DNA of 64,000 nt, taken from Mobula hypostoma (Eukaryota). Positions 5,389 to 63,384 of this stretch are shown piece after piece. Below the pieces are notes generated by a model, which worked only from the letters and a program-made list of their open reading frames with translations, had not been told where the DNA came from and did not search any database. The stretch spans positions 71,426,001-71,490,000 of the forward strand of contig NC_086097.1 of NCBI RefSeq assembly GCF_963921235.1. The letters are read 5' to 3'. How positions within the stretch are numbered: the first letter of the stretch is position 1; the number at the start of each line of letters is the position of its first letter. A program made the position numbers and the translations under genes.

Positions 5389-5595
5389 GCAACACACATA
5401 AAAATTGCTGGTGAACGCAGCAGGCCAGGCAGCGTCTATAGGAAGAGGTACAGTTGACGTTTCAGGCCGAGAACCTTCGTCAGGACTAACTGAAAGAAGA
5501 GATAGTATAGATGCTGCCTGGCCTGCTGTGTTCACCAGCAATTTTTATGTGTGTTGCTTGAAATTCCAGCATCTGCAGATTTCCTTGTGTTTGCG
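5389..5595. mobile_element. Non-autonomous fold-back Penelope-like insertion
   Basis: 13-bp TSD CCTGTACTTTTAA at 5376-5388 and 5596-5608, with ~50-bp inverted arms. The sequence matches the 3' terminal repeat of the GIY-YIG-encoding PLEs at 16242 and 23808. Confidence 0.85.
5452..5487 (-). ncRNA. Minimal hammerhead ribozyme motif (stem I mismatch)
   Basis: Minus strand reads AGUC CUGACGA AGG-UUCUCGG-CCU GAAA CGUC AACU. Confidence 0.65.
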
Positions 5596-6064
5596 CCTGT
5601 ACTTTTAAAGTATGCTGATGACTCCACCCTCAATCACTCTATCAGACAGTATTTTCCAGCTACCCACCATTCTCTGGTGAATAAAAAAGATATCCTTGCC
5701 TCCCATTAAATTATTCTACCAATTATTTCATAAATACATTGCCTCGCTTTTGACCCCTCTGCTAAGGAAACAAAGTCATTCCTATTACTTCATCCAGATT
5801 TCCTTTGTACAATGGTACATAATGGTAACTTCAGAATGATACTTCCTCATTGCAACACAACAAATTTGGAGCAAGACCATCAGAATTCTGAACCTTACTG
5901 GTTTGATCCAATTTTTCAGCAGAGAGTGAAAAAACAAAATTTCTGGTAAATGACAAATTGTGATGTACAGTGTTCTTCTTGAATTACAGTTAGTATTCAG
6001 AGCAAAACTCTGTGCCACAATTCATTGTGCTCTTATTAAAGATAACCAATGTAATAAATAACCA

Positions 6065-6301
6065 AACAACAGGAATTTTGTAGATGCTGGAAATTCAAGC
6101 AACACACATCAAAGTTGCTGGTGAATGCAGCAGGCCCGGCAGCATCTCTAGGAAAAGGTACAGTCGACGTTTCAGGCCGAGACCCTTCATCAGGACTTCG
6201 TTAGTCCTGACAAAGGGTCTCGGCCTGAAACGTCGACTGTACCTTTTCCTAGAGATGCTGCCTGGCCTGCTGCGTTCACTAGCAACTTTGATGTATGTTG
6301 C
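6065..6301. mobile_element. Palindromic Penelope-like insertion
   Basis: 15-bp TSD TGTAATAAATAACCA at 6050-6064 and 6302-6316. The ~100-bp inverted arms surround a 5-nt spacer at 6198-6202. Confidence 0.9.
6162..6197 (-). ncRNA. Minimal type-I hammerhead ribozyme
   Basis: AGUC CUGAUGA AGG-GUCUCGG-CCU GAAA CGUC GACU with an intact core. The opposite-arm copy at 6203-6238 (+) has a mutated core (CUGACAA). Confidence 0.8.
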
Positions 6302-6361
6302 TGTAATAAATAACCACAAATTTTTAAAGATCTTAATTGTAAAATAAATTGCATTCATATA

Positions 6362-6915
6362 CACTCTGTGGCCATTTATTAGGTACCACCTATATTTAAT
6401 AAAGAGGCTACTGAGTGTATATTCATGGTCTTCTGCTGCAATAGCTTATCCACCTCACGGTTTGATGTGTTGTGCATTCAGAGATGCTCTTCTGCACATC
6501 ACTGCTATAATGTGTGATTTTCTTTTTGAGTCACTCTCGCCTTCCTGTCAGCTTGAACGAGTCTGGCCATTCTCCTCTGACCTCTCTCATTAGCAAGGCA
6601 TTTTCGTCCATTCACTGGATGTTTGTTTTGTTTTTTGCACCACTCTCTGTAAACTCTAGAGACTGCTGTGCATGAAAATCCCAAGGGATCAGCTGTTTCT
6701 GAGTTACTCAAACCACACCATCTGGCACCAACAATCATTCCACAGACAAAGTCTCACTTAAATCACATTTCTTCCCCATTCTGAAGTTTTGTCAGAACAA
6801 CAAATGAACCTCTTGACCATGTCTGCATGCTTTTATGCATTGATTTGCTGCCACATGATAGGCTGATTAGGTGTTTGCATTAACGAGCAGGTGTACAGGT
6901 GTACCTAAAAGAGTG
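6362..6915 (-). mobile_element. Tc1/mariner-derived non-autonomous element
   Basis: TA-CACTC(T/A)GTGGCCA..TTATTAGGTAC terminus. The minus-strand remnant MIVGARWCGLSNSETADPLGFSCTAVSRVYREW resembles the Tc1 paired-like HTH. The other end is AGGTGTACAGGTGTACCTAA. Confidence 0.8.
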
Positions 6916-7654
6916 AAGTCCAGAAATGAACACAATAGTCCAGGTGTGGCCGACCTAATGTTTTATAAAGTTGCAACATGACACCACTGTTCTGTCATTC
7001 AATGCTATGGCTAATGCAGGGAAACATCCCACATGCTTTCTTCATTAATGTAGCTACCTATGTTATTCCTTCAGGATTCATCGACATACCCTTTTGTTTC
7101 TCTGCTCATCAATGCTCTTTTGCGTGTTAGTATTACTATGTCCTACTCTTATTTGACCTTGGAAACTGTATCATTTTGCTCAATTCCACTTTTCGTTGGC
7201 CTGCCCAGTTTGATAGCAGATTAGTATGATGGTGTGACCAAGGAAAGCATCCACTCTGTCACAAATTTTTTTGTATCATGTGGAACTTACTAATTGTACC
7301 TCTTGCATTCTCATCCATGCTATTAATTCATAATCACAAAAATAAAGAGTTATACTGCACAGAAATTAGCCCTCAGCCCAACTCATCCATGCCAACTGTG
7401 TTGTCCCATGAGCTAGTCCCATTTGTCTCTGATCAATAACCTATGTCCTTGTGTTTTCAACACTCTCTTGCTGTGTAAAACACAGTGTAGTTTCAGCCTG
7501 TCTATGTCCCACAAGATCTTTTATACCTCTATCATATCGCCCCTCAATCTCCTACATTCCAGGGAATAAAGTCCCTTTCCTTCTCATTCAGGCCGCTAAG
7601 TCTAGGCAACATCCTGGTAAATATTTTCTGCATTGTATCCAGTTTATTAACTGC

Positions 7655-8780
7655 CTTACGAGCCTGTAACAAAATACATTGATGAAGGTAGAGCAGTGGA
7701 TGTAGTGTATATGGATTTCAATAAGGTATTTGATAAGGATCCCCATGCAAGGCTCCTTCAGAAATTAAGGAGGTATGGGATCCAAGGAGACTTTGTTTTG
7801 TGGATCCAGAATTGGCTTGCCCACAGAAGGCAAAGTGTAGTTGTAGAGGGTTTGTATTCTGCATGGAGGTCAGTGACCAGTGGTGTTCCTAAGGATCTAT
7901 TACGGGACCCATCCTCTTTGTAATTTTTATAAGTGACCTGGATGAAGAAGCAGAAGGGTGGGCTAGTAAGTTTGCTGTTGACACAACGGTTGGGGGTGTT
8001 GTGGATAGTCTGGAGGGTTGCCAGTGGAACATCAATAGGATGCAGAACTGGGCTGGGCAGATGGTGTTCAACCCAGATTAGTGTGAAGTAGTTCATTTTG
8101 CTAGGTCAAATTTGAAGGCAGAATATAGTATTAATGGTAAGACTCTTGGCAGTGTGGAGGATCAGAGAGATCTTGTGGTCCATGTCCATAAGGACACTCA
8201 AAGCTGCTGCACAGGTTGACAGTGTTGTTACGAAGGCGTATGGTGTGTTGGCTTTCATCAGCTGTGGGATTGTTCAAAAGCCCTAAGGTAATGTTACAGC
8301 TATATAAGACCTTAGTTAGACCCCGCTTGGAGTACTGTGTTCATTTCTGATCACCTCACTACAGGAAGGATGTGGATACAGTAGAAAGGGTGCAGATGGG
8401 ATATCGAAAGATGTTGCCTGGGTTGGAGAATGTGACTTATGAGAATAGGTTGAGTGAACTTGGCCTTTTCTCCTTGGGGCAACAGAGGATGAGAGGTGAC
8501 CTGATAGAGGTGCACAAGAGAGGCATTGATCGTATGGATAGCCAGAGGCTTTTTCCCAGTAGTTGAAGTGGCTAACACGAGGGGATATAGTTTTAAGGTG
8601 CTTGGAAGTAGGTACAAGGGGGATGTTGGGGTAAGTTTTTCACACAGAGAGTGGTGGATGTGTGGAATGCACTGCCAGCGGTGGTGGTAGAAGCGTTTAC
8701 AATAGGGTCTTCTAAGAGACTTTTAGATAGATACATGAAGCTTAGAAAAATAGAGGCTATGCAGTAGGGTAACTCTAGGC
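7655..8780 (+). mobile_element. CR1 LINE 3' fragment (RT C-terminal half), inside older minus-strand CR1 remnants
   Basis: DVVYMDFNKVFDKDPH, VTSGVP, LEYCV and LGLFSLGQQRMRGDLIEV motifs. Confidence 0.85.
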
Positions 8781-12140: not shown

Positions 12141-13469
12141 TATTTCCAAATCAGAATGGGGCATGACTGGGTGGGAACCTATAATTGATAGTATTTCCAT
12201 GTGCTTCCTGCTTTAGTTCTTTTTTGAGGCAGAGTTCACATTTTTAGGAGGTGCTTCTGGAGAGGTTAAGGACAGTAGTGTCAGATCATTCTGTGGATGG
12301 CTCCGACTGCAGCCACTAAGCCCTTGTAATGGACGGAATAAATGTTTTGAGTGGTTGATGGGATGCCCATCAAGTGGGCTGCTTTATTTAGAGTTGTAGC
12401 TGTATTCATCCAATCACCTGGAATGCATTCCATCAGCTCTTGGCTTGTGCCTTGTAAATGGAACATTTAGGGGAAGAATCACAAGATAATCAATCCTTGA
12501 TCTGATCTTGTACCCACAGCATTGACATGGTTGATTCAGCCAAAGCTTCTGGTCAATTCTGATCCCCAGGTTGGTGACAATGGAGCTTCTGGCACAAGAT
12601 AATATGAGGTTACCTAAATAAAAGAAATGAAGAAAAATACAATATACCACTTGAGATCTTGGAAAGTATTTTAAAACATGCTGGAGACAAGGAATATGTC
12701 TTAACAACACACACAAAATGCTGGAGGAACACAGAGGGCCAGACAGCATCTATGGAAAAAAGTACAGTCAACGTTTGAGGCCTTGACACTTCGGCAGGAA
12801 TATATCTGTCCCATTTTTCGTCTTTCTGTCTGTTGCCTCCTGCTCTGGTAAAACAAGGCTCAATGCAGGTTTGAGGAATAGCATTTCATGTTCCACGCAG
12901 TCTTCCAGGTTCAATATTAAATTATCCAATTTGAGGTAACTCACTCTTTCAGTTTATATCTGAAAGGAACATTTCTGCCTGTTATCATTGTGGCTGAGGT
13001 TCCTTAAAAATCTTTTTAATTAGTATAGTCTGGCCTGTGGAGCATATTTTACAGCCTGGCTATTAGCAATACAATACAGACAAAGGAGACTAATTTGATA
13101 CTACCTGCTCTATTAGTTCATTTGGTCTAGCCCTAGAAGAGATGCTGCATTGTAGAACCAAACCATCTCCCAGCATTTTTTTTACCAAATTGTTTTCTCT
13201 CTTTCTCAATTATAACCATGAATTTTTGATCTGAAACATCCACTATATCTCTTTCTACCCACACTGCCTAACCTGCTGATTGTTTTCAATATTTTCTAAC
13301 TTTGTTTAAGATTTCCAGTTTCTACAATTGTTTTTTTTATTTATATTACTGGATAAAGTGGTTGCATTGTAGAGTTTGTGGTGAAGATTTAGAAATCCCT
13401 ATTAAAACTAAGGAGATAAATCAGCATCAAATTTACAAGACTTGTACTTGAGGATTTGAACGGCCAGAT

Positions 13470-14473: not shown

Positions 14474-16303
14474 CTGTAAAATGAATGATTTTCAAACCGC
14501 TAAATAATGATAAAATTTGCACATTGCCTGCTAAGTGACTTTTGTAACAATTGTGTGACAATTTCTGAAATATAAACCATTCAAAATCGCTCGATTTTAT
14601 TTGACTTGCACATTGGGGAACAGTTTTTTTTATAAAGAATAAGCCTATTTTATAGAAAATTAAAAGCAAAATATTTAACGTGTTCAAAAATAACTACATT
14701 TTTTTATTTGCTTCATTCTTCAGGAAGAATAGAGCTACTATTTAAATGTACAAACAAATAATATATTAAGCGTTAGCGGGCGATGATAACACACTACATT
14801 GCGGTGCCATCTTTTAATCTTTTGGGTTTGAATCTACAATTAATAATCTGAGAGTCTAGTGAATTTAAAAGGGATTTATTTGAAACTAGTTCTTAATATC
14901 ATTAATGTGCCACAGTATCATGTTGTAGCAATGTCTCAATTTAGTTCTTTATTAAGACTTCTAAATAGGCACATTTTTACTGGGCAACCATAAAGATACT
15001 CAATACACTTCAGAAATTAAATTGGGATGAATTTGTTACAGAAAAATTATGAAGTGTATTCTTTGTAACTCAGCACTCCTGTGCAGACTCTTGACATACA
15101 ACCAATCAAGAGACCATTTTACTCAGGTACAAACCATGAGCATACCTACTCGATCTGTAAATTAATTACTATTTATTCAATTTGTTCGAACACTCTGAGA
15201 AATCTATACCCCATACTATCATTTTTATCTTCTAAGTATTATTTGCTAGCAGTTGGTACATTGGTTTATTATTGTCACATATAAACCAATCAAAATCAGT
15301 GTACAGTGAGGTACAATGAAAAGTTTATTTTGATTACCGTCGAGACAAATCATTTCATTCTGACCGTGCATTGACATACTATAAGGCAAAACGATAACAG
15401 AATGCAGAATGAAGTGTCACAGTTTCAGAGAAAGTGTGATGCGGGTAGACAAGAAGGTACAAGGCCATGACAAGGTAGATTATAGATCAACAGTCCATTT
15501 TATTGTATAAAAGGTCTGCTCAATAGACATCACAGCAGGATAGAAACTGTCCTTGAGCCTGGTGGTAGATGATTATAGGCCTTTGTATCTTCTGCCCAAT
15601 GGAAGAGAGAATGTTCAGGGTGGGTTGGGTCATTGATTAAGTTGGCAGCTTTACTAAGGTAGCGAAGCGTTGATTGTAATAGAAGGGAGGCTGTTTTTTT
15701 AGTGATGTGGTGAGCTGTGTTGACAACTCTCTTCAGTTTCTTGCAGTCACAGGCAGAGCACTTGCCATACCAAACCGTGATGCATCCAGATGGGATGCTT
15801 TCTCTGGTGCACTGATGAAAATTGGTGAGGGTCAAAGGATGCATGCCAAGTTTCTTTAGCCGCCTGAGGATGTAGTGGTGCAGGTGAGCTTTACTGGTCA
15901 TGGCATCAATGGAGTTGGAACAGGACAGGCTATTGGTGATGTTTACTCCTAGAAACTCAAAGCTCTGAATGCTTTCAACCTCAGCACTGTTGATGTAGAC
16001 AGGAGCACGTGCACTTCTCTCCTTCCTAAAGTCAGTGACCAGTTCTTTTATTTGCCGACATTGTGGAAGCAGTTGTTGTCATGACACCAGGTTTCTAAGT
16101 TCTCTATCTCCTTATGGGGACTTAGTGTTATTTGAGATTCAGCCCACTATGGTGGTATTATCTGAAAACTTGTAGATGGAGTTAATGCAGAATTTTAGAG
16201 TATGTGTCTGAGGATGCAGCCCTCTTGTGCATCAGTTTGGACAACACACATCAAAGTTGCTGGTGAACGCAGCAGGTCAAGCAGCATCTATAGGAAGAGG
16301 CGC

Positions 16304-16339
16304 AGTCGACGTTTCAGGCCGAGACCCTTCGTCAGGACT
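16304..16339 (-). ncRNA. Minimal type-I hammerhead ribozyme
   Basis: AGUC CUGACGA AGGGUCUCGGCCU GAAA CGUC GACU, intact. Confidence 0.82.
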
Positions 16340-16632
16340 AACTGAAGGAAGAGTGAGTAAGGGATTTGAAAGCTGGAGGGGGAGGGGGAGATGCAAAATG
16401 ATAGGAGAAGACAGGAGGGGGAGGGATGGAGCCGAGAGCTGGACAGGTGATAGGCAAAAGGGGATACGAGAGGATCATGGGACAGGAGGCCTAGGGAGAA
16501 AGACGGGGGGGGGGTGACCCAGAGGATGGGCAAGAGGTATATTCAGAGGGACAGAGGGAGAAAAAGGAGAGTGAGAGAAATAATGTGTGCATAAAAAGGA
16601 GTAACAGCTGGGGTACGAGGGGGAGGTGGGGC

Positions 16633-16959
16633 CTAGCGGAAGTTAGAGAAGTCAATGTTCATGCCATCAGGTTGGAGGCTACCCAGACGGAATATAAGGT
16701 GTTGTTCCTCCAACCTGAGTGTGGCTTCATCTTTACAGTAGAGGAGGCCGTGGATAGATATGTCAGAATGGGAATGGGATGTGGAATTAAAATGTGTGGC
16801 CACTGGGAGATCCTGCTTTCTCTGGCGGACAGAGCGTAGATGTTCAGCAAAGCGGTCTCCCAGTCTGCGTCGGGTCTTGCCAATATATAAAAGGCCACAT
16901 CGGGAACACCGGACGCAGTATATCACCCCAGTCGACTCACAGGTGAAGTGTTGCTTCAC
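16633..16959 (-). pseudogene. PLE GIY-YIG endonuclease domain fragment
   Basis: VIY...YIG motif with CxxC, plus the conserved R, H, E and N residues of PLE endonucleases. Confidence 0.85.
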
Positions 16960-19900
16960 CTGGAAGGACTGTTTGGGGCCCTGAATGGTGGCAAGGGAGG
17001 AAGTGTAAGGGCATGTGTAGCACTTGTTCCGCTTACACGGATAAGTGCCAGGAGGGAGATCAGTGGGGAGAGATCAGTTTGGAGATGGATTTGCTTGGAT
17101 TTACAGTATCGTTGAAGGCAGAGCTGTAGTCAAGGCATTAGCGTATGTATCTTTACTGCCCAGATGCTTCAAAGATGGTGTCCGCCATAGACCTGTTTCA
17201 GCAGTAGGTGAATTGAAGAGGAACAAGGATGTCAGGGATGCGAGCCATGACCCACTTCTCCTAGCACTTCATAATGGAGGATATCAGAGGCAGCAGGTAG
17301 TAGTCATTAAGGTTCATTACCTTGTTTTTCTTAGGTACTGGGATGATAGTAGTGTTAATACAGGTAGGAACCTCAGAATGAAACAGTGAGAGTTTAAAAA
17401 CATCTGCAATCACCTCTACCAGCTGATCTACTCAAGATGTAAGGACACAGCGAGTGATGGTGACCAGGCCAGATGCTTTCCATGAGTTCGCTCTCCGGAA
17501 GACTGATCTTGCATCTGCAATGCTGACTCGGAATCGAGGTGCATTGGTAGCTGTCAGGGCAGGTGTGACATTCCAATCCTCTTCTGTTCAAAATATGGAC
17601 AGACTGTGTTGAGCTCACTGGGGAAGGATGCATTGTTGTCAGTAATGCTGCCTGACATTGTTTCGTGGTACATTATAGCAACGGTTGCACTGATCTGGGA
17701 CTCAATTTTGGACAAGTTTTGTCTATTGGCATCTAGGAGAGCTTTACAGACACCATATCTTGATTTATTTTGTAAATATCAGGGCCATCTGACTTTTGAA
17801 CACTGCAGTGCTTGACTTCAAGTAGAGAGTGGATCTCCTGGTTCATCCATGACTTTCTCTTTGTGAACACCTGGACTGTCGTCTTTGATGCACAGTTTTG
17901 AACACACTTGCTGATAAAGTCCATGACAATGGGGACATACTTAAATTGGCTACTGAGTCTTTGAGCAGGGACCAGTCTACTGACTCCAAGTAATTGCGTG
18001 GAAACTCATCTATTTCCTCAGACCAGCACTGTACAACTTTCTGTTCTGGAGCCTCCCATTTCAGCTTCTGTTTGTATGCAGGGAGAAGGAGCACAAACTG
18101 ATAGTCTCATTTACCAAAGTGTAGGAGGGGAGTAGGTGTGTTCGGTTGTGTAGCAATAGTCAAGGGGGTATTTGGGCCCCGGGTGGGACAGGTGACATGC
18201 TGGTAGTATTTTGCCCACTCTTGAAGATGGCCTAGCTGAAGTCACCGATTACTGTGCTTAAATACTCTGGGTATCCTGTTTCATGATGATCATGGAGTAT
18301 ATTTCATTGCATACAGGCTTCATGTCTACCTGGGGTGGAATGTAGACACCTGTCAGCATAGCTGAAGTGAACTCCTAAGGCAGCTAATATCTAACTATTA
18401 GATATTCCAAGTTGGAACTCCAAACATGCAGATTTTAATTTGGTTAATGCTGAATGTTACCTCAACATTTGCAAATTTATTTTAGTTTTTTATCTTTAAC
18501 AAAGCTTATAATGAAAATTACTCGGTTACTGTACACACAGAAAAAATGTTGCTTATCAAAATTAATAATTTTTCATTGTAGCATGCCTATCTTAAAATAA
18601 CATTAGCAATGCAAAGCATGAGCCATTGTCCATGAAAAAAATAAAGAGATGAAATGTTTACAAGTAACAGAGAAATTCAAATAAAGGCATATCTGCCAGG
18701 ATACTATCTTAAAAAGAAAAGCTTTTTAATGTGAAAATATTTTGTTGCCAGCATTTAACGGAATTTGTTCAGAGATTCTTTTATTAAAATTTAATGAATA
18801 ACATAAACTTCAAATGTATTAAATGGTGCAGTAAGTTCTCCTCAAAGTAGTGCTCAACTGTATTAATGGAGATGAACATCAGTTTGCATACCAATTTATG
18901 GCTTGCACATACAATTCCAGGTTTTTATGTCTCATAAAAATGATTTTTTTTAGGTAGGTTTCCACCACCTTTTCAACACCACATCAAGTTCATTGCTCAG
19001 TATAGTAAAAGGACCACAAGACCATAAGCCATTGGAGCAGAATTAGGCCATTCAGCCCATCGAATCTGCTCTGCCATTCGATCATGGTTGATCTCTGATC
19101 CTACTCAACCAACACAATACTCTCCTATAAGACCACAAGACAAAGGACAAATTGATGTTTCATAGGACTCGATGGTTGTGTGACTCTTCTTCACATTCAT
19201 GTGCTTAATTTAGAACTGGGAACTAGAAGCACAATTTCAAAATTAGCAGTCTGTAGTTTTTGCCAGCATTGAGAAGAACTTCTCAGTGTTAGCAAAAAAC
19301 TATGAAAAGACATTAGTAGATTTTCAGAATAGATGTGCAACTAGCTCTTAAAGTACTATATAGGAAAATGCAATAATGCAAAAATGCAATATAGGAAAAT
19401 GCTAAGAGTGGGAGATGATCTGATGGTTAGCTGATGTGAGTCTTTGAGATTTTAAAAGGGTTTGCTAGGATTAATGCAGAGCAAAAGCTCTGTTTCTGGG
19501 CTAAACCAGACTAATGGGCCGTTATGATAAAATAGGCAGTTATAAGTACAATAAGGAAGAAGTTCCCAAAGTTTTTTTAAGGTAGCACCCTTCAGAATGA
19601 TTTCACTTTTTATATCATTATGTCATCTCTCAAAAATTACAAACATTGAATAAAATACTGTTTTGACAATGACGCCATCCCCTGGCTACACCCCGCGCCC
19701 AAATGCTGCCTGCCTCAAAGTTTGAAAACCTATGGAAACAGAAAAATATGGATAAATATATACCAAATGTAATTCAAGGAAGTATACTACTGATCCTAGT
19801 TTGAGGGGGTCTTCTAGAATACTGTGTATACCTTTGCATGTAGAGTCAGAGTCAAGTTCAAAGTTCACGTTTATTATTAAAGTATTTATACCGTATACAA

Positions 19901-23807: not shown

Positions 23808-25366
23808 GACACACATAAAATGCTGGTGAATGCAGCAGGCCAGGCAGCATCTATAGGAAGAGATACAGCCGATGTTTCGGGCCAAGACCCTTCGTCAGGA
23901 CTAACTGAAAGAAGAGGTAGTAAGAGATTTGAAAGTGGGACGGTGGGGGGGGGGGAAGATCTGAAATGATTGGAGAAGACAGGAGAGGGTGAGATGGAGC
24001 TAAGAGCTAGAAAGTTGATTGGCAAAAGGGATACAAGGCTGGAGAATGGAGAGGATCCTGGGACGGGAAGCGTAGGGAGAAAGAAAGGGGGAAGGGAGCC
24101 CAGAGGATGGAGAGCAGGCAAGAAGTTATAGTGAGAGGGACAGAGGGAGAAAAAAGAGAGAGAGAAAAAAGGGAAAAAAATTACAATAATAAATAAATAA
24201 ATAAATAAATATATATAAACAAGTGATGGGGCATGAAGGGGAGGAGGGGCATTAATGGAAGTTAGAGAAGTCAATGTTCATGCCATCAGGTTGGAGGCTA
24301 CCCAGACAGAATATAAGGTGTTGTTCCCCCAACCTGAGTGTGGCTTCATCTTTACAGTAGAGGAGGCCATGGATAGACATATCAGAATGGGAATGGGACG
24401 TGGAATTAAAATGTGTGGTCACTGGGAGATCCTACTTTCTCTGGAGGACAGAGCGTAGGTGTTCAGCGAAACGGTCTCCCAGCCTGTGTCAGGTCTTGCC
24501 AATATAAAGAAGGCCACACTGGGAACACCAGACGCAGTATATCACCCCAGCCGATTCACAGGTGAAGTGTCGCCTCACCTGGAAGGACTGTCTGGGGCCC
24601 TGAATGGTGGTAAGGGAGGAAGTGTAAGGGCATGTGTAGCACTTGTTCCGCTTACAAGGAAAAGTGCTGGGAGGGAGATCGATGGGAAAGGATGGGGAAG
24701 GGGAAAGAATGGAAAAGGGAGTCACGTAGGCAGCGATCCCTGCGGAAAGCAGAAAGGTGGGGGGAGGGAAAGATGTGCTTAGTGGTGGGATCCCGTTGGA
24801 GGTGGCAGAAGTTACGGAGAATTATATGTTGGACCTGGAGGCTGGTGGGGTGGTAGGTGCGGACAAGGGGAACCCTATTCCTAGTGGGGTGGCGGGAGGA
24901 TGGAGTGAGAGTAGATGAGCGTGAAATGGGGGAGATGCGTTTGAGAGCAGAGTTAATGGTGGAGGAAAGGAAGCCCCTTTCTTTAAAAAAGGAGGACATC
25001 TCGTTCGTCCTGGAATGAAAAGCCTCATCCTGAGAGCAGATGCGGCGGAGATGGAGGAATTGTGAGAAGGGGATGGCATTTTTGCAAGAGACAGGGTGAG
25101 AAGAGGAATAGTCCAGATAGCTGTGAGAGTCAGTTGGCTTATAGTAGACATCAGTAGATAAGCTGTCTCCAGAGATAGAGACAGAAAGATCAAGAAAGGG
25201 GAGGGAGGTGTTGGAAATGGACCAGGTAAACTTGAGGGCAGAGTGAAAGTTGGAGGCAAATTTAATGGTCACATTCCACGTCCACGTCCCATTCCCAGCT
25301 GTGTTCACCAGCATTTTGTGTGTGTTACTTGAATTTCCAGCATCTGCAGATTTCCTCGTGTTTACA
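23808..25366 (-). mobile_element. 5'-truncated Penelope-like element with a short inverted terminal arm
   Basis: 10-bp TSD TCTCCATCAT at 23798-23807 and 25367-25376. RT thumb (LPFLDLSV..TDVYYKPTDSHSYLDYSSSHP) and GIY-YIG (VIYCVWCSQCGLLYIGKT). An inverted copy of the 3' repeat lies at ~25298-25364. Confidence 0.92.
23867..23902 (-). ncRNA. Hammerhead motif variant (GAAACAUC)
   Basis: AGUC CUGACGA A-GGG-UCUUGG-CCC GAAA CAUC GGCU. The core is intact but the stem III palindrome is disrupted. Confidence 0.6.
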
Positions 25367-30415: not shown

Positions 30416-30509
30416 TTCGTTTCTCTGTGCCATGGTTTCCAAACGATGTAAAGGTTTTAAGTGTGTTGAGGGGATTACATAACATGATCACTAGAATGAG
30501 ACTAATTAT

Positions 30510-33490: not shown

Positions 33491-34737
33491 TAGAATGTGA
33501 GAAATTCAGTAATCATGGAGCATTGTTTCTTGGAGTTACATCTGTAGGATAGAAACCTGCCACTGCTCAAGATGAAATTGGTAGTCTGTGTAGTCATAGA
33601 CACAAGAGATTCTGCGGATATTCATCTGCTTGGTAAGAGTGGCTATTAGATATGATATACTTTTTTTGCTGGGAGCAGTGGAAATGAGCAGAAAGAAATA
33701 CAGTATTTGCTGAATAATGGCGCCGAGGGAAACCACTTGGAGAGATGTAAATTGCCATGGTTCCTATCCCCACTGCTGGTAGATATGGAAGGATGTCAGG
33801 TAATGAGGAGGTGTAATTGGCTTGAACTTTACACACCCTTCTCCGTGAAAACTGTGCCTCCTTTTGCTGGAATTAGATACTTTCAAACCCACTCAGCTAA
33901 TAGTATACTCCTGACCTCTATCACTCAAATGCATTTGGAGAATACGGTCTAGAATCATGTCCGGCGACAAACTAGTTCCCAGAAAAATCCAATCAGAGTT
34001 GAATTACTTTACTTCAGGAAACATCTTGGCTGACAGAAACAATTTAATGTGTTATACGAATGCAGCAGCAAACCCTGGACTGAGACAAACATCAGCTTAT
34101 CTCCAAGTATTGTGGATGACTGGGGGCCTGTGACTCATCTATGACTATTCCTGCTGCTAATACTATTTTTTGGTATGGATTGGTTTGAACATTGAATCAA
34201 TAGGTCAACAATAAAGTTACTTACTCTCAGTGAAGACTGCTGTCAAGCAAGGTAGAACCTTTGTCCCAATGTTTTCCTGTTTGTGTGCAAACAGAAGCTG
34301 AGATCCAAGACATCACTGATTCATTCACATATGAGAGGATGAGTATTACACTCAAAATGTACAAGATGAAAGCTACTCTCTGAACCCATCCCCATTAACT
34401 TCTACCAATTAAGACTCATGGCAAGACACAGGAAAAGCATGGAAAAGCCACGTTCCAAACCTGGGGAGCCACTTCTGGTGAAGGTATGTATTGGTAATGA
34501 ACTTTACCGTCATCCTTAATTAAGGAACTGGGTACTTAAAGACCGTCTTCAGAGTTGGCACAAATTCATGGCCTACCAGTTACGGTGATGCCTGCTCTGC
34601 TATACTTCGAAATCTTCTTGAGCAGACATTAGAATCAGAAAACAACAGGAATTCTGCAGATGCTGGAAATTCAAGCAACACACATCAAAGTTGCTGGTGA
34701 ACGCAGCAGGCCAAGCAGCATCTATAGGAAGAGGCGC

Positions 34738-34773: not shown

Positions 34774-34816
34774 TGGTGAACGCAGCAGGCCAAGCAGCAT
34801 CTATAGGAAGAGGCGC

Positions 34817-34852
34817 AGTCGACGTTTCAGGCCGAGACCCTTCATCAGGACT
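34817..34852 (-). ncRNA. Hammerhead ribozyme, tandem unit 2
   Basis: AGUC CUGAUGA AGGGUCUCGGCCU GAAA CGUC GACU. Confidence 0.82.
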
Positions 34853-34922
34853 TGGTGAACGCAGCAGGCCAAGCAGCATCTATAGGAAGAGGCGCAGTCG
34901 ACGTTTCAGGCCGAGACCCTTC

Positions 34923-34956
34923 GTCCTGACGAAGGGTCTCGGCCTGAAACGTCGAC
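34923..34956 (+). ncRNA. Hammerhead motif on the inverted arm
   Basis: GUC CUGACGA AGGGUCUCGGCCU GAAA CGUC GAC, with a 3-bp stem I. Confidence 0.7.
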
Positions 34957-35109
34957 TGCGCCTCTTCCTATAGATGCTGCTTGGCCTGCTGCGTTCACCA
35001 GCAACTTTGATGTGTGTTATTAGAATCAGATTCAGGTTTATTATCACCGACATATTGTGACATTTGTTGTTTCATGGCAGCAGTACAGTGAATACAATAT
35101 GTTTCTTTA

Positions 35110-40760: not shown

Positions 40761-41879
40761 TGAGATTAGCAGGAGGCTTTCACAAACTACTTCAACAAGC
40801 TAATAAAAACCTACAGATTCTGTAGATACTGGGAATATTGATCAACACACTCAAAATGCTGGAGGAACTCAGCAAGTTAGGCAGCATCCATAAAGGGAAA
40901 TAAATATTCCACATTTCAGGCTGAGACCCAAAAAAGTCAACATTTTTGGTAATGTTGTATCATAGTGAAAGCCTGGGGATCCATTAAAAAGCAAAATAGT
41001 AGCAGGTTTCTGACGGGGATATCCGTTTTGTCACACAATTGCCCTATGTTTTGAATAAAATATGTATTTCCTTTAATTGAAAAGGAAGAAAAGCTGAAAT
41101 GAAATAAAAAAAGAAACTTCTCTCTGATCTGTTGAGTATCTTTCATATTTTATGATATGATATATTATGAATTTATTTACACTTGTGCTTTGCAGTGTGA
41201 TTGTCACAATGATTTCAGTTGCTAGTATTTATTGTGTCATTGTCATGTGATGATTCACCTAAAATCTGTTACATGCAGAAGGTGGCAACACAAAAGCTGA
41301 ACTAGTAGAAAATAAGAGAACTAGATCTGTGGACCTTTTTAAAGAGAAGATAGTGAAAAGAAACTAAGGGTCAGTGTTTATCAAGTAGCAACAAGTGAGG
41401 AAATACAGTGATATTTACGCACTTGGAACTGGGATTTACTTTGACTGGTTGTGAAGAGGAGCAGAGATTGTTGTGAGTTCTACAATGAAATGCTGTCTGT
41501 CCAATGAGAGCTTAAAGACAAATAACCTTCACTGCCACTTGTTCCCTCAGAATGAATGTGTAGGTAGGTCAAATTAATTTTCCAACAAGCTGAGAAAATT
41601 GAATGAAAGGAAAAAAAAAACAGTGCCAAGTGCGGCCACCAGCATTGACAATGAAATGACCATGAAACACCTTGTGGGGTGTCTTCACTCATAGCAAAGA
41701 CAGGAAAACCTCTCACAAGTAGACAAGATATTATCACCAGCTGGAAAGGAAATTTGTTCTGTGTTAAGAGAGAAGGCTTTCAAGCAAATTAATGTAATGT
41801 TCCTGTCAGATAACAGAGCTCAACAAAGGAGAAAAGGTAGCAAAGTGATGCAGCAGGTAGAGTTGCTACAGTAGAAGAG

Positions 41880-49144: not shown

Positions 49145-50064
49145 AGCATTCAGTATCACACTGGACTTCATTTGAAGTACATTAAACTAATCTCCACGCA
49201 ACTGAATATCTAAATTGATATTCAAAAAGTGTGACATCATATGAAATAAGATATTGTCAATTATTATTTGGAGGAGCTTGTCTACATCCATTGCCCTTTC
49301 CAGAATATCTTATCCTGATGGTTTAGGTGATTTACTTGGCACTCAATATATAAATAGGATTATCATGGTGGGCTACTTCCCTGAATAATCAAGATTACCC
49401 TGATCATCAACCTCCATTCAGGAAAATTCAGACATAAAATGTTCTCTGACCAAGGCAAGGTGGCTACCCTTTGAGAACAATCCTCTGAAATACATCAGGA
49501 ACAGAATGAGGATACAGACCATCTCAGGTCATATTTTGTGTAATGAAACACTATTGATTTATCATCTCATAGTCAAGGAATAACATAACAAAACAGTATG
49601 CAAAGTGGGACATATCAAATGGAAACTAGGATCTTAAGTTAAGGAAGAGATGCAAGTGCTTAACATGACAAAAATGATGGGGAAAATAATTTAAAAGGCT
49701 TTATTGTAGATAAAGAAAAGCAAGCATTTAAAGAAATGTTCTACGTTCAATTAATTCAAAAGTCACAACACGTAAATATTCCAAAGAAAACTATGAGAAA
49801 ACACAAAAGTGATCAATTTGTGGTTGTTCAAAGAGGTTGAACGGGAATATTAATGTAAAAGAAGAGGTTTATAACACTGAATTGCAAAAATAAATGCAGA
49901 TGCTGAAATTCTGAAATACGAAACAGAAAATACTGCAGATGTTCAGCAGGTCAGACACCACCTATAGAGACAGAAGTAAAGTTAAACGTCTCTGGTTGAT
50001 GAGTTGTCTTTATAAGAGACATTGGATTTGACATTTTGGGATGGTTTAGGTCCTAGAAAGAAAT

Positions 50065-53589: not shown

Positions 53590-55240
53590 TGTTTTGCATC
53601 TGTATTTACTTCGAAGATGGACACAGAGTCTATAGAAGTGAGGCAGTGTGGTCATGGACCATATATAGATTAGAGGGGAGGAGGTGTTTGCTGCCTTGAG
53701 GCAAATTAGGGTGGATAAATCCACAAGGCCTGACAGGGTGCTCCCTTGGACCAAGTGGAAGGCTAGTGCAGAAGTTGCAGGGACCCTAGCAGAGATGTTT
53801 AAAACATCCTTGTCACAGGTGAAGTGCTGGAGGACTGGAGGACGACTAATGTTCCATTGTTTAAGAAAGGCTCTAAGAATAAGTCAGGAAATTATAGGCC
53901 AGAGAGCCTGACATCAGAAATGGGAAAGTTATTGAAAGGTGTTCTAAGGGACCAGATATATAAGCATTTGGATAGACAGGGTCTGATTGGGGATAGTCAA
54001 CATGGCTTTTTGTGTGGTAGGTCTCGTCTAATCAAGCATATAGAGTTTTTTGACGAAGTTGTCATGAAAATTGATGATGGCAGGGTGTTTGAGGTTGATT
54101 AAGAAGGTTCAGTCACTTGGCATTCAAGATGAGGTAGTAAATTGGATTAGACATTGGCTTCGCAGGAGAAACCAGAGAGTGGTAGGAGATAGTTGGCTCT
54201 CTGACTGGAGGCCTGTGACTAGTGGCGTACCACAGCAATCGATGCTGGGGTCTAAGCAACACTCACAACACGCTGGAGGAACTCAGCAGGTCAGGCAGCA
54301 TCTGTGGAAACGATCAGTCAATGTTTCAGGCCGGAGTATTTTGTGTTTACGATGCTGGGTCTGTTGTTGATTGTCATCTACTGCAAACCAACGATCTGGA
54401 TGGTAATGTGGCAAACTGGATCAGCAAGGTTGTGGACGACACTAAGATCTGGCATGCAGTGGACAGTGAGGAAGACCATCACAGCTTGTAGCGGGATCTG
54501 GATCAGCTGTAAAAATGGGCTGAAAAATGATAGATGGAATTTAATGCAGTCAAGTGGGAATTATTCCTTGAAAGTAGTGTCATAAATAGACAGGGTCAAA
54601 AAGAAAGCTTTTGGCATATCGGCCTTCATACAGTAAGTCAATGTATTGAGTACAGGAGTCTAGATTTTATGTTGAAATTGTAGAAGACATTGGTGATGCC
54701 TTATGTGAAGTATTGTGTCCAGTTTTGGTCACATACCTACAGGAAAGATGTAAGTAAGATTGAAAGAGTGCAGAGAAAATTTACAAGCATGTTGCTGGGA
54801 CTTGAGGATATGAGTTATAAAGAAAGATTCAGTAGGTTTGGACTTCATTCCCTGGATTGTAGAAGACTGATAGGAGATTTGATACAAAATTATGAGGAGT
54901 ATCGATAGGTTAAATGCAAGCAGGTTTTTTACACTGAGGATGGATGAGATTAGAAGTAGAGGTCACATTTTAAGGGTGAAAGGTGAAATGTTTAAGGGGA
55001 ACATGAGGGGGATCTTCTTCATTCAGAGTGTGATGAGAGTGTGGAATGAGCTTCCAATGGTGGATGCACGCTCAATTTCATGCTCAGTTAAGAGAAATTT
55101 GGATAGGTATGTGCATGGGAGGGATACGGAGAGCTGTCGTCCAGGTGTAGGTCGATGGGATTAGGCAGATTAATGGTTTGGCATGGAATGGATGGGCCGA
55201 TTGGCCTGTTTCTGTGCTGTAGTGTTATATGACTCTATAA
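53590..55240 (+). mobile_element. Decayed CR1 RT with a small PLE-repeat insertion (~54255-54335)
   Basis: GNYRPESLTS, QHGF, VTSGVPQ, KVVDDTK and KYCVQFWS motifs. Confidence 0.85.
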
Positions 55241-55643: not shown

Positions 55644-57479
55644 TTTAATAATTATGAACTTTGAAGTTGCAGACAATTTGTAGGGGCCTTTACTGGTAGG
55701 TTTTCAAACACCAACAAATTTGAAAGATTAACTTTCAAATAATATGCAAGGGTCTGCATTCAGTTCACATTTACCAAGGCAAGCGAACCACAGAAGTAAA
55801 AAAAAACTCACTTCAAGAAGGCTTGTTAACTGCTTAGTCTGTTAAGCTTCAGTTACCATGGTAGCCAGTGTTGAAAACTCTACAGATTGGTATAAAAAAT
55901 CATGTCGACAATTGCTCTGTCACAGCATGGAGGCAGACCTGTTCAAAAGCAGCACACCATGAGCTTTTCTTCCCAGTTTGCACTACCCCATGCAGTCTAA
56001 TAATATCCATTTACTGGCTGCAGATTGATCTAGTGTAGAAACTTGTAACTAGTCATGTTCCAGCATTCCCCCCACCCCCAAGATGGGCATTGCAAGAAAT
56101 TGTCAATGAGGCACTTTATTAAGCAATTCCCAATTACATAAGAATGTTTTTATAATTAAACACAACTACTTTGTTTTTAATATCATGATGCTGAAATTAA
56201 AAAAGCTACCATCTAAATGTATCCTTTAAAATAGTGATGATGATACAGGGTTATGGGCAAAATGGTAACAAACATATTTTAAATTATGTCGAAATAAATG
56301 ATAACTTAAGCAGCTTAGGGGAGGCATGCAGTTTTTAGTGCAGTGTACTATTTTGTGGATGCGACTCAACGCAAAGTTGTGAGTATTTGTGTCAAGAATT
56401 GGGTCTTCAATTGGTTACAAAATTTTAAAAGCAAAACTATGAGAGTAAACTTGCAAGCATAACCTCCCATGATAGCAGGATACTTCAATGCAATTTCAGA
56501 TTCCAACCAGAGTTAATGTGTAAAGTATGGGCCCAGAGTGACGAGGGATGCAGAAGGGAATGTTTCACTTCTCTGACAGACATCACAGTATTTGAGTTGG
56601 ATACCAAACAAATTATCAAAAAAAATTCCACCCAATTTCTAGCCCACTCTCAGCTCTTCTCCATGATTGAAAGACAAATAACACTTACTTACAACATGGA
56701 GTGATTAGGTTCATTGCAGATGTTTCAACTACAGCTGGATCCTTCCAACATCAGCTCAAGTTAGCCTAATTTCCAACTGAGTCGACTCTCAAACACACAT
56801 TAATTCCTAGACACAAGAGCTTCTGCAGACGCTGGAAATCTCCCATTAATTCTTGCTATGTGCATGCATTGATGTTACATTTGCAATGTCAGTCCTGTAT
56901 TACATGAAAATAATATGTTACTGCTGCACTCCCAGCAGTTACCTAAAGACACGTGATGGGAACAAATATGCACGAGGCATTTTCAGACTGTGCACTTGGT
57001 ACAAATGTGACAAATATGCCCCATGATATATTTCAAGCTGAAAACCTATTTAACTAAACTTTTAACAGAACATGTTCAAAACGTATCTCAACCATCTACA
57101 AAATAATTAATTTTACAAAGATAATTTTCATTATTGCCTTCGGATTCACTGATGAAGGATCTTGGCTCGAAACATCAACTCTTTACTCCTTTCTATAGAT
57201 GCTGCCTGACCTGCTGAATTCCCCCAACATTCTGTGTGTGTTACTGCAGATTTTCAGCATCTGCAGAATCTCTGTTTTTGAACTCATATCTGGTTTAACT
57301 ACTCCCCCTCCCCCACGATTTCAAAAAATGCTCATGTCAAGTGGATGAGCCTTAGAAACAGGGGAATTTTTAAGCAAGCAACTCCAAAGGCAGCCCCAAT
57401 ATTGTCCTCATATACTGTATAAACAATCTGGAGTTGTGACCTTGACCAATATCATTGTTCCTAATCAGGGGTCACTAGA

Positions 57480-58150: not shown

Positions 58151-58263
58151 AGTAATGCTTAGCCACACAGACATAAGAATAAGCATCATTGCTGTAGTTA
58201 TCTTTTTAATTCTTTATTTTAGAACACTGCAGCTTTCTAAAAGAATTGCTATATCTTTTACAA

Positions 58264-60150
58264 GCACGAGAAAACCTGTAAATGCTGGAAATCCAAAGCA
58301 ACACACACAAAATGCTGAAGGAACTCAGCAGGCCAGGACCAGTGACCAGTGACCAATGTTTCAGGGCACAACCCTTCATCAGGACTGGAAAAGAAGGGGA
58401 GAAGTCAGAGTAAGAAGGTGGAGGGAGGGGAGAAAGAACTACAAGGTGGTAGGTGAGAGGTGAAACCGTGAGAATAGGAAGGGTGAAGTAAAGGGCTGGG
58501 AAGTTGACTGGTGAAAGAGATAAAGGGCTGGAGAATAGGGAATCTGATATGAGAGGACAGAAAACCATGGAAGAAAAGGAAGGGGGAGGAGCACCTGAGG
58601 GAGGTGATGGGCAGACAAAAAGAGAAGGTATGAGGGGGAAACAGGAATGGGGAATGGTGAAAGTGGGGGAGGGAATTAGCAGAAATCAAGAAATGGATGT
58701 TCATGTCAAAATGTTGGAGGCTGCCCAGTTGAAATATAAGGTGTTCTCCTCCAAACTGAGTATGGTCTCATCCTGGCAGTAGAGGAGACTATGGGCTGAT
58801 GTATCAAAATGGGAATGGAAATGAGATTGGGACGTAAAATTAAAATGGGTGGCCACAGGGAAATCCCGCTTTTCTGTGGCAGCTGGAGCAAAGCTCCTCG
58901 GTGAAGCAGTCTCCCAATCTACATAAAGTCTCAGTGATATACAGGAGTCCATGCCGGGATCACTGGATACAGTTGATGACTCCAACAGACTCATAGGTAA
59001 AGTGTCGCTTCACTTGAAAGGACAGTCTGGGGCCCTGAATGGTCGTGAGGGAGGAGGTGTAGGGACAGGTGTGGTGCTTGTTCTGCTTGCAAGGATATGT
59101 GCCAGGAGGAAGATCACTGGGGAGGGACGAGTGGACAAGGGAATCATGTAAGGAGTGGACCCTGTGGAAAGTGGGATGGGGGAATAGGGAAGTTGTGCTT
59201 GCTGGTGGGATCCTGTTGGGAATGGTGGAAGTAAAGGAGAATTATACGCTGGATGCAAAGGCTTGTGGGGTGGTAGGTGAGGACAAGAGGAACCCTATCC
59301 CTGGTCTGGCGGCAGAAGGATGGGGTGAGGGTAAATGTGTGTGAAATAGAATTGATGCATTTGATGACAGTGCTGATGGTGGAGGAAGGGAAGCTCCTTT
59401 CTTTGAAGACGGAGAGCATCACAGTTGCTCTGGAATGAAAAGCCTCATCCTTAGAGAAGATGCGTTGAAGATGGAGGAACTAAGAAAAGGGAATGGCATT
59501 TTTACAAGTGACAGGGTAGGAAGAGGTATAGCCGATACCTGTGAGAATCAGTGGATTTAGAAAAGATATCAGTAGATAGCCTGTCTCCAGAGATGGAGAC
59601 AGAAAACTCAAGAAAGGGGAGAGAGGTATCAGAAATGGACCAAGTAAATTTGAGGCAAAGTTGATGAAATTGACGAACTACAGGAAGCCACACCAATGTC
59701 ATCATCAATGTAGCGTAGGAAGAGTTGAGGAGTGATGCTGGTGTAGGCTTGGAACACGGACTGTTTCACATAGCTGATGAAAAGGCACGCATAGCTGGAC
59801 CAATATGAGTACCCATGGCTACACCTTGGGTTTGAAGGTAGTGAGAGGAGCCAAAGGAGAAATTGTTGAGGGTGAGGACAGAAGAGAGTGATGGTGAAGG
59901 GGAACTGGTTGGGTTGGTTATCCTTGAGGCCCTCCTGATGGGTATAGAAGTCCATAGGTATTATTAAGGTTCATAGTGCAAATGAGACAACTGGGGCCGA
60001 GGAACTTAAAGTCATTGAAACGATGACAAGCATGTGAAGTGTCTCAGATGTAGGTAGGAAGGGACTGAGCTGGGGGGATAAAACAGAGTCAATGTATGCA
60101 GACAGAAGTTCTGTGCGGTAGGAGCAGGCAAAAACAATGGGTCTACCTGT
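58264..60150 (-). mobile_element. Older decayed Penelope-like element (RT plus GIY-YIG plus hammerhead repeat)
   Basis: GRPIV, QLFLRYIDD, LPFLE, RVPLVLTYHP and PVATHFN motifs. Hammerhead variant at 58351-58386 (CUGAUGA AGGG-UUGUG-CCCU GAAA). Confidence 0.85.
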
Positions 60151-61650: not shown

Positions 61651-61809
61651 CATTCATAGTGGATAAGCCTTTCAAATGAATATGGATGTGCCAAAAGATT
61701 TTGAAAGACCAGAATCAAAATGCTAAATCCAATCAGAACAGGAGGACAATGCCCTTCCAATGCATCCTGCTCTTCCATGATGCTATGCATTCTCCTTGGA
61801 ACTTCCAAA
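61651..61809 (-). CDS. Candidate internal coding exon of an unidentified host gene (LEVPRRMHSIMEEQDALEGHCPPVLIGFSILILVFQNLLAHPYSFERLIHYE)
   Basis: Strong acceptor ttaccttttctttaaccattactgctatcctgttgcttctcag, then 159 nt open in only one frame, then donor ATG|gtaatt. Phase 2/2. Confidence 0.6.
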
Positions 61810-62119
61810 CTGAGAAGCAACAGGATAGCAGTAATGGTTAAAGAAAAGGTAAATAGCATGTTTCCCAAGATCAATGATGAATCCTCTTTTTGCTCATATT
61901 CTTGAAATGTGGACATAATTTCATAATTTGATGTTTCAAAATTAAATTGCAAAATAAAAACAAGTATAGTTATGGAAGACACAAGAAAATATAACAAATT
62001 GTTAGGCAAGTGACAATAGCTTTTCAGTGTGGTAGAGTGAAAGACGGGGTATTTAAGGAACACACATCAAAGTTGCTGGTGAACGCAGCAGGCCAGGCAG
62101 CATCTCTAGGAAGAGGTAC

Positions 62120-62155
62120 AGTCGACGTTTCAGGCCGAGACCCTTCGTCAGGACT
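62120..62155 (-). ncRNA. Minimal hammerhead ribozyme
   Basis: AGUC CUGACGA AGGGUCUCGGCCU GAAA CGUC GACU. Confidence 0.82.
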
Positions 62156-62964
62156 ATCTGAAGGAAGAGTGAGTAAGAGATTTGAAAGTTGAAGGGGGAG
62201 GGGGCAATCCAAAATGATAGGAGAAGACCAGAGGGGGAGAGATGGAGCCAAGAGCTGGACAGGTACTTGGCAAAAGGGATACGACAGGATCATGGGACAG
62301 GAGGTCCAGGAAGAAAGACGGGGGGGGGGGAACCCAGAGGATGGGCAAGAGATATATTCAGAGGGACAGAGGGAGAAGAAGGAGAGTGAGAGAAAGAATG
62401 TGTGTATAAAAGTAAGTAACAGATGGGGTACGAGGGGGAGGTGGGGCATTAGCGGAAGTTAGAGAAGTCGATGTTCATGCCATGAGGTTGGAGGGCTCCA
62501 GCTTCCTCTCACCCCAACCCTCCCCTCTCCATTGACACCCCCAGCCTTCCCCCTCCCCCCTCTGATCCCAGCTCTCATCCGTGCCAGGTCTTTACCATCC
62601 CCACTGACCTTCAACTGTTGGAGGCAGAATGCTCTGTCCTCAGTAAGGGCCTCACCTTTGTCCCCCTTCGCCCACACCTCAGCGAGTTCTGCATTCGCCA
62701 TGATGCGGAACTCTTCTTCCGCCGTCTCCGTCTCCGAGCCTACTTCTTCTCTGTCCCTCTGAATATAGCCCTTGCCCATCCTCTGGGTTCCCCTCCCCCC
62801 CGTCTTTCTTCCCGGACCTCTGTCCCATGATCCTCTCGTATCCCATTTGCCAATCACCTGTCCAGCTCTTGGCTCCATCCCTCCCCCTCCTGTCTTCTCC
62901 TATCATTTTGGATCGCCCCCTCCCCCTCCAACTTTCAAATCTCTTACTCACTCTTCCTTTAGTT

Positions 62965-63000
62965 AGTCCTGATGAAGGGTCTCGGCCTGAAACGTCGACT
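62965..63000 (+). ncRNA. Minimal hammerhead ribozyme
   Basis: AGUC CUGAUGA AGGGUCUCGGCCU GAAA CGUC GACU. Confidence 0.82.
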
Positions 63001-63384
63001 GCACCTCTTCCTAGAGATGCTGCCTGGCCTGCTGCATTCACCAGCAACTTTGATGTGTGTTGCTTGAATTTCCAGCATCTGCAGAATTCCTGTTGTTTGT
63101 GTATTTAAGGAAAGTGGCTTCCTGACAATGCCTTTAAACTGGCCCACCCATAATTGTGTAATTGTTATATATGCTATTAACCATGGCCAACATTGCTTTG
63201 TCATAACTCCTTCATGTATCTCTATATTAATATACTTCGACAGTCCTTGTGTAGACTGTCAAAAACCCAGAGTTTGTTATTGATCTACCGATTCGACAGT
63301 TAATGAATTCTTGCCCACTGCACAATGAGAAGGAAGCAACATCTAATGTATGCAATTTCCATCTACATGGTGGCTATGTATTTA

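Follow-up and report, generated by a model that had tools for sequence, protein, structure and literature searches.

What a hammerhead ribozyme motif does in the many copies of a transposable element is the question raised by a window of 64,000 nucleotides from the cartilaginous fish Mobula hypostoma (assembly GCF_963921235.1, contig NC_086097.1, positions 71,426,001 to 71,490,000; coordinates below are those of this window, the whole stretch of DNA analysed). A first-pass annotation had placed the same 36-nt motif at 12 positions, had assigned it to the 3' repeat of Penelope-like elements (PLEs) with a GIY-YIG endonuclease, and had read it as about ten ribozymes with a covarying stem II. Our analysis leads to a more restrained answer: the motif is probably a minimal hammerhead ribozyme (min-HHR) in the pseudo-long terminal repeat (pseudo-LTR) of a massively amplified Neptune-type PLE, kept in the master elements and carried as a passenger in the dispersed copies.

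A minimal type I hammerhead motif

The family motif reads AGUC CUGAYGA A GGGU CUCG GCCY GAAA CGUC GACU and fits the published min-HHR consensus (PMC4209133) position by position, with the CUGANGA and GAAA core and NUH, a single additional base ahead of G10.1, a G at the start of stem II, a palindrome where stem III would be, and a short stem I. The setting described for PLE min-HHRs in the same source is also found, namely U-rich sequence upstream, a location in the 3' repeat of 5'-truncated PLEs and second copies on the opposite strand, and the 4-bp stem II with a 4-nt loop resembles the Acropora Neptune row of its alignment. Every sequence feature tested is thus that of a PLE min-HHR, within-family covariation excepted, and this match, together with the coding context described below, bears out the assignment of a minimal type I hammerhead to a PLE 3' repeat. 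The published alignment (Fig. S3) has 56 rows, no one of them from a cartilaginous fish.

The extra base A12 and the following G13 (G10.1) are invariant at all 12 sites, and the palindrome at 15.2-16.2 reads ACGU at nine sites and ACAU at three. The closing pair 10.1-11.1 is G-C at 2/12 sites and G-U at 10/12 (C share 16-25% in the four sequencing runs described below), compared with G-C in >80% of the consensus. A U at 11.1 was rejected as a new variant, since several rows of the published min-HHR alignment (PMC4209133) also have a G-U closing pair. Per-copy CpG decay is an unlikely origin of this U in the young subfamily, because 10/10 young copies have it and all but one of them retain the three other CpGs, although decay may add to it in older copies.

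The expectation that such motifs are easily missed proved correct for Rfam, which gave no match at gathering score in the whole window and no hammerhead among the seven matches at E ≤ 10 in 34500-35200. For a motif without stem III this silence is to be expected. The miRNA-type matches of Rfam fall short of their gathering scores and are produced by the perfect inverted repeat. A search for relatives that left the stems free returned four metagenome matches without family similarity, all of which were dropped as chance, and none in viral contigs.

The motif, or a decayed form of it, is present at each of the 12 listed places, as found with a degenerate pattern, a loose core regular expression and BLAST across the window. 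The degenerate 36-nt pattern (≤3 mismatches) had 11 matches, against none in 100 shuffles; these comprise ten of the listed sites plus, at 34896, a partial copy in which the core is missing its start. The decayed sites listed at 57149 and 58351 were picked up only by the loose core expression and BLAST. In register, the sites listed at 34923 and 57149 begin at 34922 and 57145. The copies are not, as had been stated, the same motif, in that eight distinct sequences are found among the 12 sites. The core was said to be kept, and the checks on CUGANGA, GAAA and NUH were indeed all passed at eight sites, with one core change at each of the other four (G8>A at 6203; G16.2>A at 23867, 57145 and 58351), but only six sites are fully intact; one more (34922) combines an intact core with three of four stem I pairs. 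Lesions, mostly CpG transitions, are present in 5/12 sites, the site at 5452 having both a broken stem I and a broken stem II pair. The density of more than one per 10 kb stands as a count of sites (12 in 64 kb), which stem from only eight insertion events because three insertions hold two to four copies each. The count of about ten ribozymes is likewise overstated: hammerhead motifs are present, but half of the sites are lesioned in some way, and most of the intact motifs lie in inverted repeats, where folding predicts that they would pair with the antisense arm of their own repeat. Four additional decayed terminal repeats, absent from the earlier list, were found at about 12705, 40805, 49895 and 54254, and with these relics the PLE family covers ~10% of the window.

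The carrier element and its insertions

The coding sequence attached to the motif is that of a PLE. The frame upstream of the site at 16304 encodes a GIY-YIG domain, which scores above the Pfam cutoff (E 5e-5), and a C-x4-C-xx-C linker. In translation, the linker CKRNKCYTC is present in two copies, and the copies at 23867, 58351 and 62120 bear the same endonuclease region, that at 58351 extending to reverse transcriptase (RT) motifs. The placement in the 3' repeat of a GIY-YIG PLE is thereby confirmed at these four sites, in all of which the motif lies downstream of the endonuclease stop, at a distance of ~290 nt. A further piece at 62495-62743 matches the N-terminal part of proteins of 800-930 residues, with RT and GIY-YIG in five of eight hits scanned; used as a query in the ESM Atlas, this piece gave no usable match. 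For the endonuclease, the closest named proteins belong to a skate and a stingray, which makes a batoid host probable. At 62495-62750 (+) the N-terminal piece of the open reading frame (ORF) is fused directly to the 3' untranslated region (UTR), an arrangement that corresponds to an internal deletion or a template switch.

An RT followed by a C-terminal GIY-YIG (in the 58260-59905 copy and the relatives), inverted or tandem terminal repeats, an optional tail and target duplications are all marks of endonuclease-containing (EN+) PLEs, and all are found here. A CX2-5CxxC linker between RT and endonuclease defines the Neptune clade, Nematis sharing it (PMC8557442), and only Neptune and Poseidon PLEs were found in the vertebrate genomes of a 2026 preprint (bioRxiv 10.64898/2026.07.22.740005). 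The linker motif points to a Neptune-type carrier. Neptune insertions, as described in PMC8557442, have the same C-terminal GIY-YIG, Cys linker and 5' truncation, an inverted 5'-truncated copy, and a tail of 30-40 bp that is often found on one end only.

Many insertions in the window are 5'-truncated, inverted or tandem. Target-site duplications (TSDs) of 10-15 bp flank six of the ten insertions examined, and none is clear at the four oldest. Arm ends fall into two groups, at about +96 to +100 and at +134 to +136 counted from the first base of the motif (+1), and the two fixed 3' ends lie ~65 or ~100 nt downstream of the motif. In the inverted insertions the longer end is carried by exactly one arm in 5/5 cases, which is the optional tail known for PLEs and ascribed to two RT start sites in Anolis. 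The hammerhead of the Anolis Poseidon element PAc (PMC11167929) similarly lies just upstream of the two RT start sites that set the tail; both strands are cut and extended, and no RNA-sequencing ends are reported at the cut site. PAc differs in belonging to the Poseidon clade and in having an ORF that starts in the hammerhead, whereas the element described here has the Cys linker of Neptune and no conserved frame across the motif.

Stem II variation and decay

The proposed covariation of stem II (AGG/CCU, GGG/CCC and AGGG/CCCU) could not be substantiated, there being no two-sided change beyond what shuffles give in either register. In the published register none of the eight pairs changed on both sides, with a score of 0.156 below the shuffle mean of 0.164; in the register of the first-pass annotation there is one two-sided cell, which 391/500 shuffles also reached. 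The published register leaves 90.6% of stem II cells paired, versus 75% in the other. The 5' strand of stem II is unchanged at 10/12 sites, and both changes break a pair. The contrast between AGG/CCU and GGG/CCC comes down to one C/U site at 11.1 seen through two registers, and AGGG/CCCU reflects a change on one side only, in a single decayed copy. As a caution, a CpG-prone C/U site can mimic covariation when the register shifts.

Because eight distinct rows from a young family give low power, contigs of four sequencing runs (of 24; three organisms) were aligned to 62920-63300, counting copies at least 80% alike. The only changes listed at ≥4% inside the motif were at N7, at position 11.1 and at CpG transitions, and no variant of the stem II 5' strand was listed at ≥4% in the four runs, a count that distant subfamilies fall outside. 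Published PLE families are 'full of covariations' (PMC4209133), whereas the family here is near-uniform and without compensatory change.

The dispersed copies look neutral in their evolution, with core CpGs decaying no more slowly than that of the loop. The C15.2/G16.2 CpG was changed in 8.5-13.3% and the loop CpG in 6.1-10.3% of copies in the two large DNA runs, and in the two small runs both decay less, again alike. These rates bear on the possibility, which we regard as quite unlikely, that many dispersed copies are selected, working ribozymes that cut host or element RNA as dimers in cis or trans, with a 79-nt tandem yielding small linear or circular RNAs like those of a young retrozyme. 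The six intact sites are what such selection would leave; the equal decay of core and loop, and the lack of any two-sided pair change, are not. CpG decay is lower in a run guessed to be RNA (X9), as working copies might show, but it is equally low in a DNA run (X16).

Folding and the prospects for cleavage

Energy calculations are also unfavourable to working copies. The monomer at minimum free energy (MFE) is an inactive rod in which the core is paired with the cleavage strand, and in the folded inverted insertions, a set that excludes the one at 62051, the motif is paired to the antisense arm. The strongest candidate for a dimer is the 79-nt tandem (x2.9) at 34695-34925, where two intact motifs follow each other at a spacing of 79 nt and allow a nested double hammerhead to be drawn, which favours cleavage in dispersed copies. 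However, this active dimer lies 19 kcal/mol above the ensemble when taken alone and ~39 kcal/mol above the MFE of the whole insertion, and a 136-nt piece folds no better than shuffles (z +1.1). Stem II contributes -2.5 kcal/mol with the G-U closing pair versus -5.1 in a copy with C, the loop of which also differs. The unfavourable dimer energies agree with experiments on relatives, in which min-HHR dimers of related PLEs cleave weakly (PMC4209133), cleavage in Anolis needed protein and ribozyme mutants had no effect on insertion in vitro (PMC11167929), and one of nine Xenopus dimer elements tested was active (bioRxiv 10.64898/2026.07.22.740005). The eight Xenopus elements that did not cleave speak against working dimers here.

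The tandem invites comparison with non-LTR retrozymes (PMC7229834; bioRxiv 10.64898/2026.07.22.740005), which are also head-to-tail units with a type I hammerhead, from PLE terminal repeats; on sequence it conforms to the 'two consecutive units' rule of the preprint (units at 34738 and 34817). That preprint screened one chondrichthyan genome for tandem forms, and its PLE-derived tandem retrozymes in vertebrates, including that genome, lend some credit to the idea of small RNAs made from dispersed copies. So do the tandem joints at other loci, which re-enter at the motif start, at 62964-62969, in five of 12 rows listed out of 84. The tandem in the window differs from retrozymes in being one local template-jump product inside a single TSD-flanked insertion, in its unit of 79 nt instead of 170-400 nt, and in its minimal, not canonical, hammerhead. 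In the DNA sequence it shows no sign of independent spread or circular RNA.

Arm starts at the 5' edge of the motif

If cleavage shaped the inserted copies, arms might begin at the predicted cut product (+33); 0/18 do so, a further point against working dispersed copies. Eight of the 18 arms, in four of 12 insertions (6063-6302, 34640-35020, 57145-57279 and 12705-12802), begin instead at -8 to +7 of the motif's first base, with the reservations that the numbers are small, that the arms were found by motif-near queries, that two of the four insertions are old and that the end of an alignment need not be the point of truncation. In all six copies shown, a pyrimidine tract with YAG comes to an end within 0-5 nt of stem I, and an intron end is similarly placed at the hammerhead edge in D. 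virilis Penelope (PMC4209133). By eye, several rows of the published alignment have a similar U-rich YAG.

Both the arm starts and the pyrimidine tract with YAG would fit a motif that is kept for a job other than cleavage, be it as a 3' splice site, as a signal for RT pausing or template switching, or as a structure bound by protein, with a hammerhead chemistry that is vestigial in this lineage. The G-U closing pair, which weakens stem II in most copies, is in keeping with this, and the authors of the 2014 survey could not exclude other functions (PMC4209133). Even so, we judge this explanation unlikely. Every feature of the min-HHR consensus is present, including the extra base and the palindrome, and G-U closing pairs are found in several published rows. 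Related motifs do cleave, weakly as dimers (PMC4209133) or with protein (PMC11167929), and unspliced upstream sequence is among the listed loose ends of the run guessed to be RNA.

Peptide frames and gene models

The first-pass annotation had warned of spurious ORFs and mis-annotation. The peptide SPDEGSRPETST is the exact translation of the motif at 7/12 sites, and it is present in one annotated ray isoform, P0116 (one of three candidates). Stop-free frames of >100 residues occur at three of the 12 sites, those with an 80% pyrimidine 3' UTR upstream; the warning may be apt for P0116, but the long frames are due to the pyrimidine-rich 3' UTR more than to the motif. The gene model P0115 (one of nine candidates) opens with repeat sequence at the 3' end of the motif, and a motif that Rfam misses thus leaks into gene models, be it through annotation error or through genuine exonisation. 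A stingray VKORC1-like isoform model, P0111, opens with the C-terminal 43 residues of the endonuclease of this PLE.

The SPDEGSRPETST frame could in principle be the real coding start of the PLE ORF, overlapping the ribozyme as in Anolis, where the ORF begins inside the hammerhead (PMC11167929), so that conservation would be partly at the protein level. The frame is open from the motif to the tail end in young copies, and 9/15 non-CpG variant sites fall at third codon positions (one-sided p=0.03, with frame and CpG class chosen post hoc); with all variant sites the figure is 11/23 (p=0.11). Several observations make this very improbable. Subfamilies differ in spacing by 1-2 nt, the frame is lost in older copies, and the consensus of the other subfamily has an in-frame stop soon after the motif. 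The peptide was not seen in seven relatives of the ORF N-terminus, and no in-frame start codon lies within the motif.

A model of the element

The combined results suggest a model in which the RT-endonuclease nicks both strands of the target and reverse transcription begins at one of two sites 36-38 nt apart, giving a short end or a tail. Reverse transcription would often stop early, after which two cDNAs may be joined tail to tail or the RT may jump between templates. Because the motif sits near the RT start sites, nearly every fragment carries it. In master elements the motif would be maintained by selection and, by analogy with its relatives, probably cleaves weakly at GUC as a protein-helped dimer formed through the ACGU palindrome. 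The dispersed copies would be passengers that decay neutrally, form inactive rods or pair with their own antisense arm.

Retention of the motif in master elements is suggested by the best-supported loose ends in 4/4 runs, where the sequence of another subfamily diverges just before +1 and after +36/37 and matches across the motif. Some points weigh against this picture of a motif kept in Neptune-type masters. The subfamily boundaries come from the best-supported rows only, with 832 more behind them, and similarity resumes ~14 nt past the motif. Non-CpG variant sites are not significantly rarer inside the motif (2/36) than after it (13/100; Fisher p=0.35). No full-length tandem master element was found in the window, the Neptune-type assignment is made by the linker motif, and the nearest-neighbour energies cited above omit the hammerhead tertiary core, tertiary contacts and metal ions.

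Features of the window

The insertions and motif copies are collected in Table 1. Near-perfect hairpins of ~100 bp, at 34853-35020 and 6063-6302, would form in read-through RNA and could yield double-stranded RNA; their miRNA-precursor scores are below gathering thresholds. At the inversion joint of the 23809-25363 insertion (25255-25294) there are ~33 nt of additional sequence with a short direct repeat. The window also holds long interspersed nuclear element (LINE) copies at 36938-39760 (+) and 25585-27003 (+), with apurinic/apyrimidinic (AP)-type endonuclease and RT domains and 92% alike over 1.4 kb, which we take to be CR1-like, and an older LINE relative at 28855-30424. The broken frames at 1854-3834 (+), the first of which is without a Pfam match, resemble by their motifs what is presumably a relic of an LTR-retrotransposon RT and integrase.

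Table 1. PLE insertions and hammerhead motif copies in the window.
Feature	Position	Strand	Details
Intact minimal hammerhead motif, reference copy	62965..63000	+	Pattern match; published consensus (PMC4209133 Fig. S3)
Reference copy, stem I	62965-68/62997-63000	+	Published register
Reference copy, core	62969-75; 62976; 62989-92	+	CUGAUGA; extra A; GAAA
Reference copy, stem II	62977-80/62985-88	+	4-nt loop
Reference copy, palindrome and cut	62996/62997	+	Palindromic ACGU replaces stem III; predicted cut between these positions
Inverted-repeat PLE insertion	62051..63100	both	12-bp TSD
Minus arm of 62051..63100	62120-62155 (motif)	-	Endonuclease C-terminus, 3' UTR, intact motif, short 3' end
Plus arm of 62051..63100	62495-62743 (ORF piece)	+	N-terminal ORF piece joined to 3' UTR, motif 62965, tail
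Inverted-repeat insertion	34640..35020	both	12-bp TSD
Minus arm of 34640..35020	34738-34773; 34817-34852; 34896-34925	-	79-nt tandem x2.9, ends in tail; two intact motifs, then a partial one
Plus arm of 34640..35020	34922-34957 (motif)	+	Motif with 3 stem I pairs, short end
Inverted-repeat insertion	6063..6302	both	15-bp TSD
Minus arm of 6063..6302	6162-6197 (motif)	-	Intact motif and tail
Plus arm of 6063..6302	6203-6238 (motif)	+	Motif with G8>A, short end
Inverted-repeat insertion	5384..5593	both	13-bp TSD
Minus arm of 5384..5593	5452-5487 (motif)	-	Damaged motif, short end
Plus arm of 5384..5593		+	Begins 3' of motif, carries tail
5'-truncated PLE	16242..17073	-	11-bp TSD; Cys linker and GIY-YIG frame 16633-17073, 3' UTR, intact motif 16304-16339, short end
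Older PLE insertion	23809..25363	both	10-bp TSD
Minus arm of 23809..25363	23867-23902 (motif)	-	Broken RT-thumb/endonuclease coding region, 3' UTR, motif with C at 11.1 and G16.2>A
Short plus arm of 23809..25363	25295-25363	+	With tail
Old PLE copy, other subfamily	58260..59905	-	Broken RT and endonuclease region, different 3' UTR, decayed motif 58351-58386, tail
Old short copy	57145..57279	+	Decayed motif (stem I lost, G16.2>A), tail; TSD not found
Decayed terminal-repeat copy	12705..12802	-	Motif core lost
Decayed terminal-repeat copy	40805..40929	-	Without 5' half of motif
Heavily decayed terminal-repeat copy	49895..50010	-	
Decayed terminal-repeat copy	54254..54333	-	Without 5' half of motif
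Candidate 3' splice site	62935..62966	+	Branch-like word, pyrimidine tract, YAG; ends 0-5 nt from stem I

Family size and significance

In the window the motif has a density of ~190 sites per Mb, or ~100 per Mb when intact copies are counted. In two DNA runs the contig depth summed at the motif exceeds that of the unique flank by factors of 6.7 and 5.6 x 10^5. This ratio is not a copy number, and overlapping short contigs probably inflate it, perhaps several-fold. Scaled to a 4-Gb stingray genome (PMC12946260), the density of the window, which was picked for that density, is of the same order. A rough estimate of family size is therefore 10^5-10^6 copies, most of them decayed. Published min-HHR counts are ~4,000 in coelacanth and ~9,000 in Xenopus (PMC4209133), and 126,247 canonical hammerhead motifs are counted in axolotl. 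A partly loose search of the literature on sharks and rays, which gives no clean negative, found no such family reported besides the 2026 preprint, and the main text of two stingray genome papers contains neither 'Penelope' nor 'ribozyme'.

A bolder reading can be put forward, which we hold to be doubtful. It combines the family size with the arm starts, such that this would be the largest vertebrate family of ribozyme motifs, with several hundred thousand copies, whose cDNAs stop or jump at the 5' edge of the hammerhead, at the 3' splice site, and not at the scissile bond; the jumps would build short tandem units with a pair of intact hammerheads, retrozymes that are being born in a single insertion step. 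If this is true, the size of the family would allow genome sequence alone to test whether a PLE hammerhead cuts in vivo and to what end.

The family described here is a cartilaginous-fish member of a kind known since 2014, found at a density far above published counts. It provides a very large natural sample of insertions, the 5' ends of which can test whether hammerhead cleavage shapes the transposing RNA.

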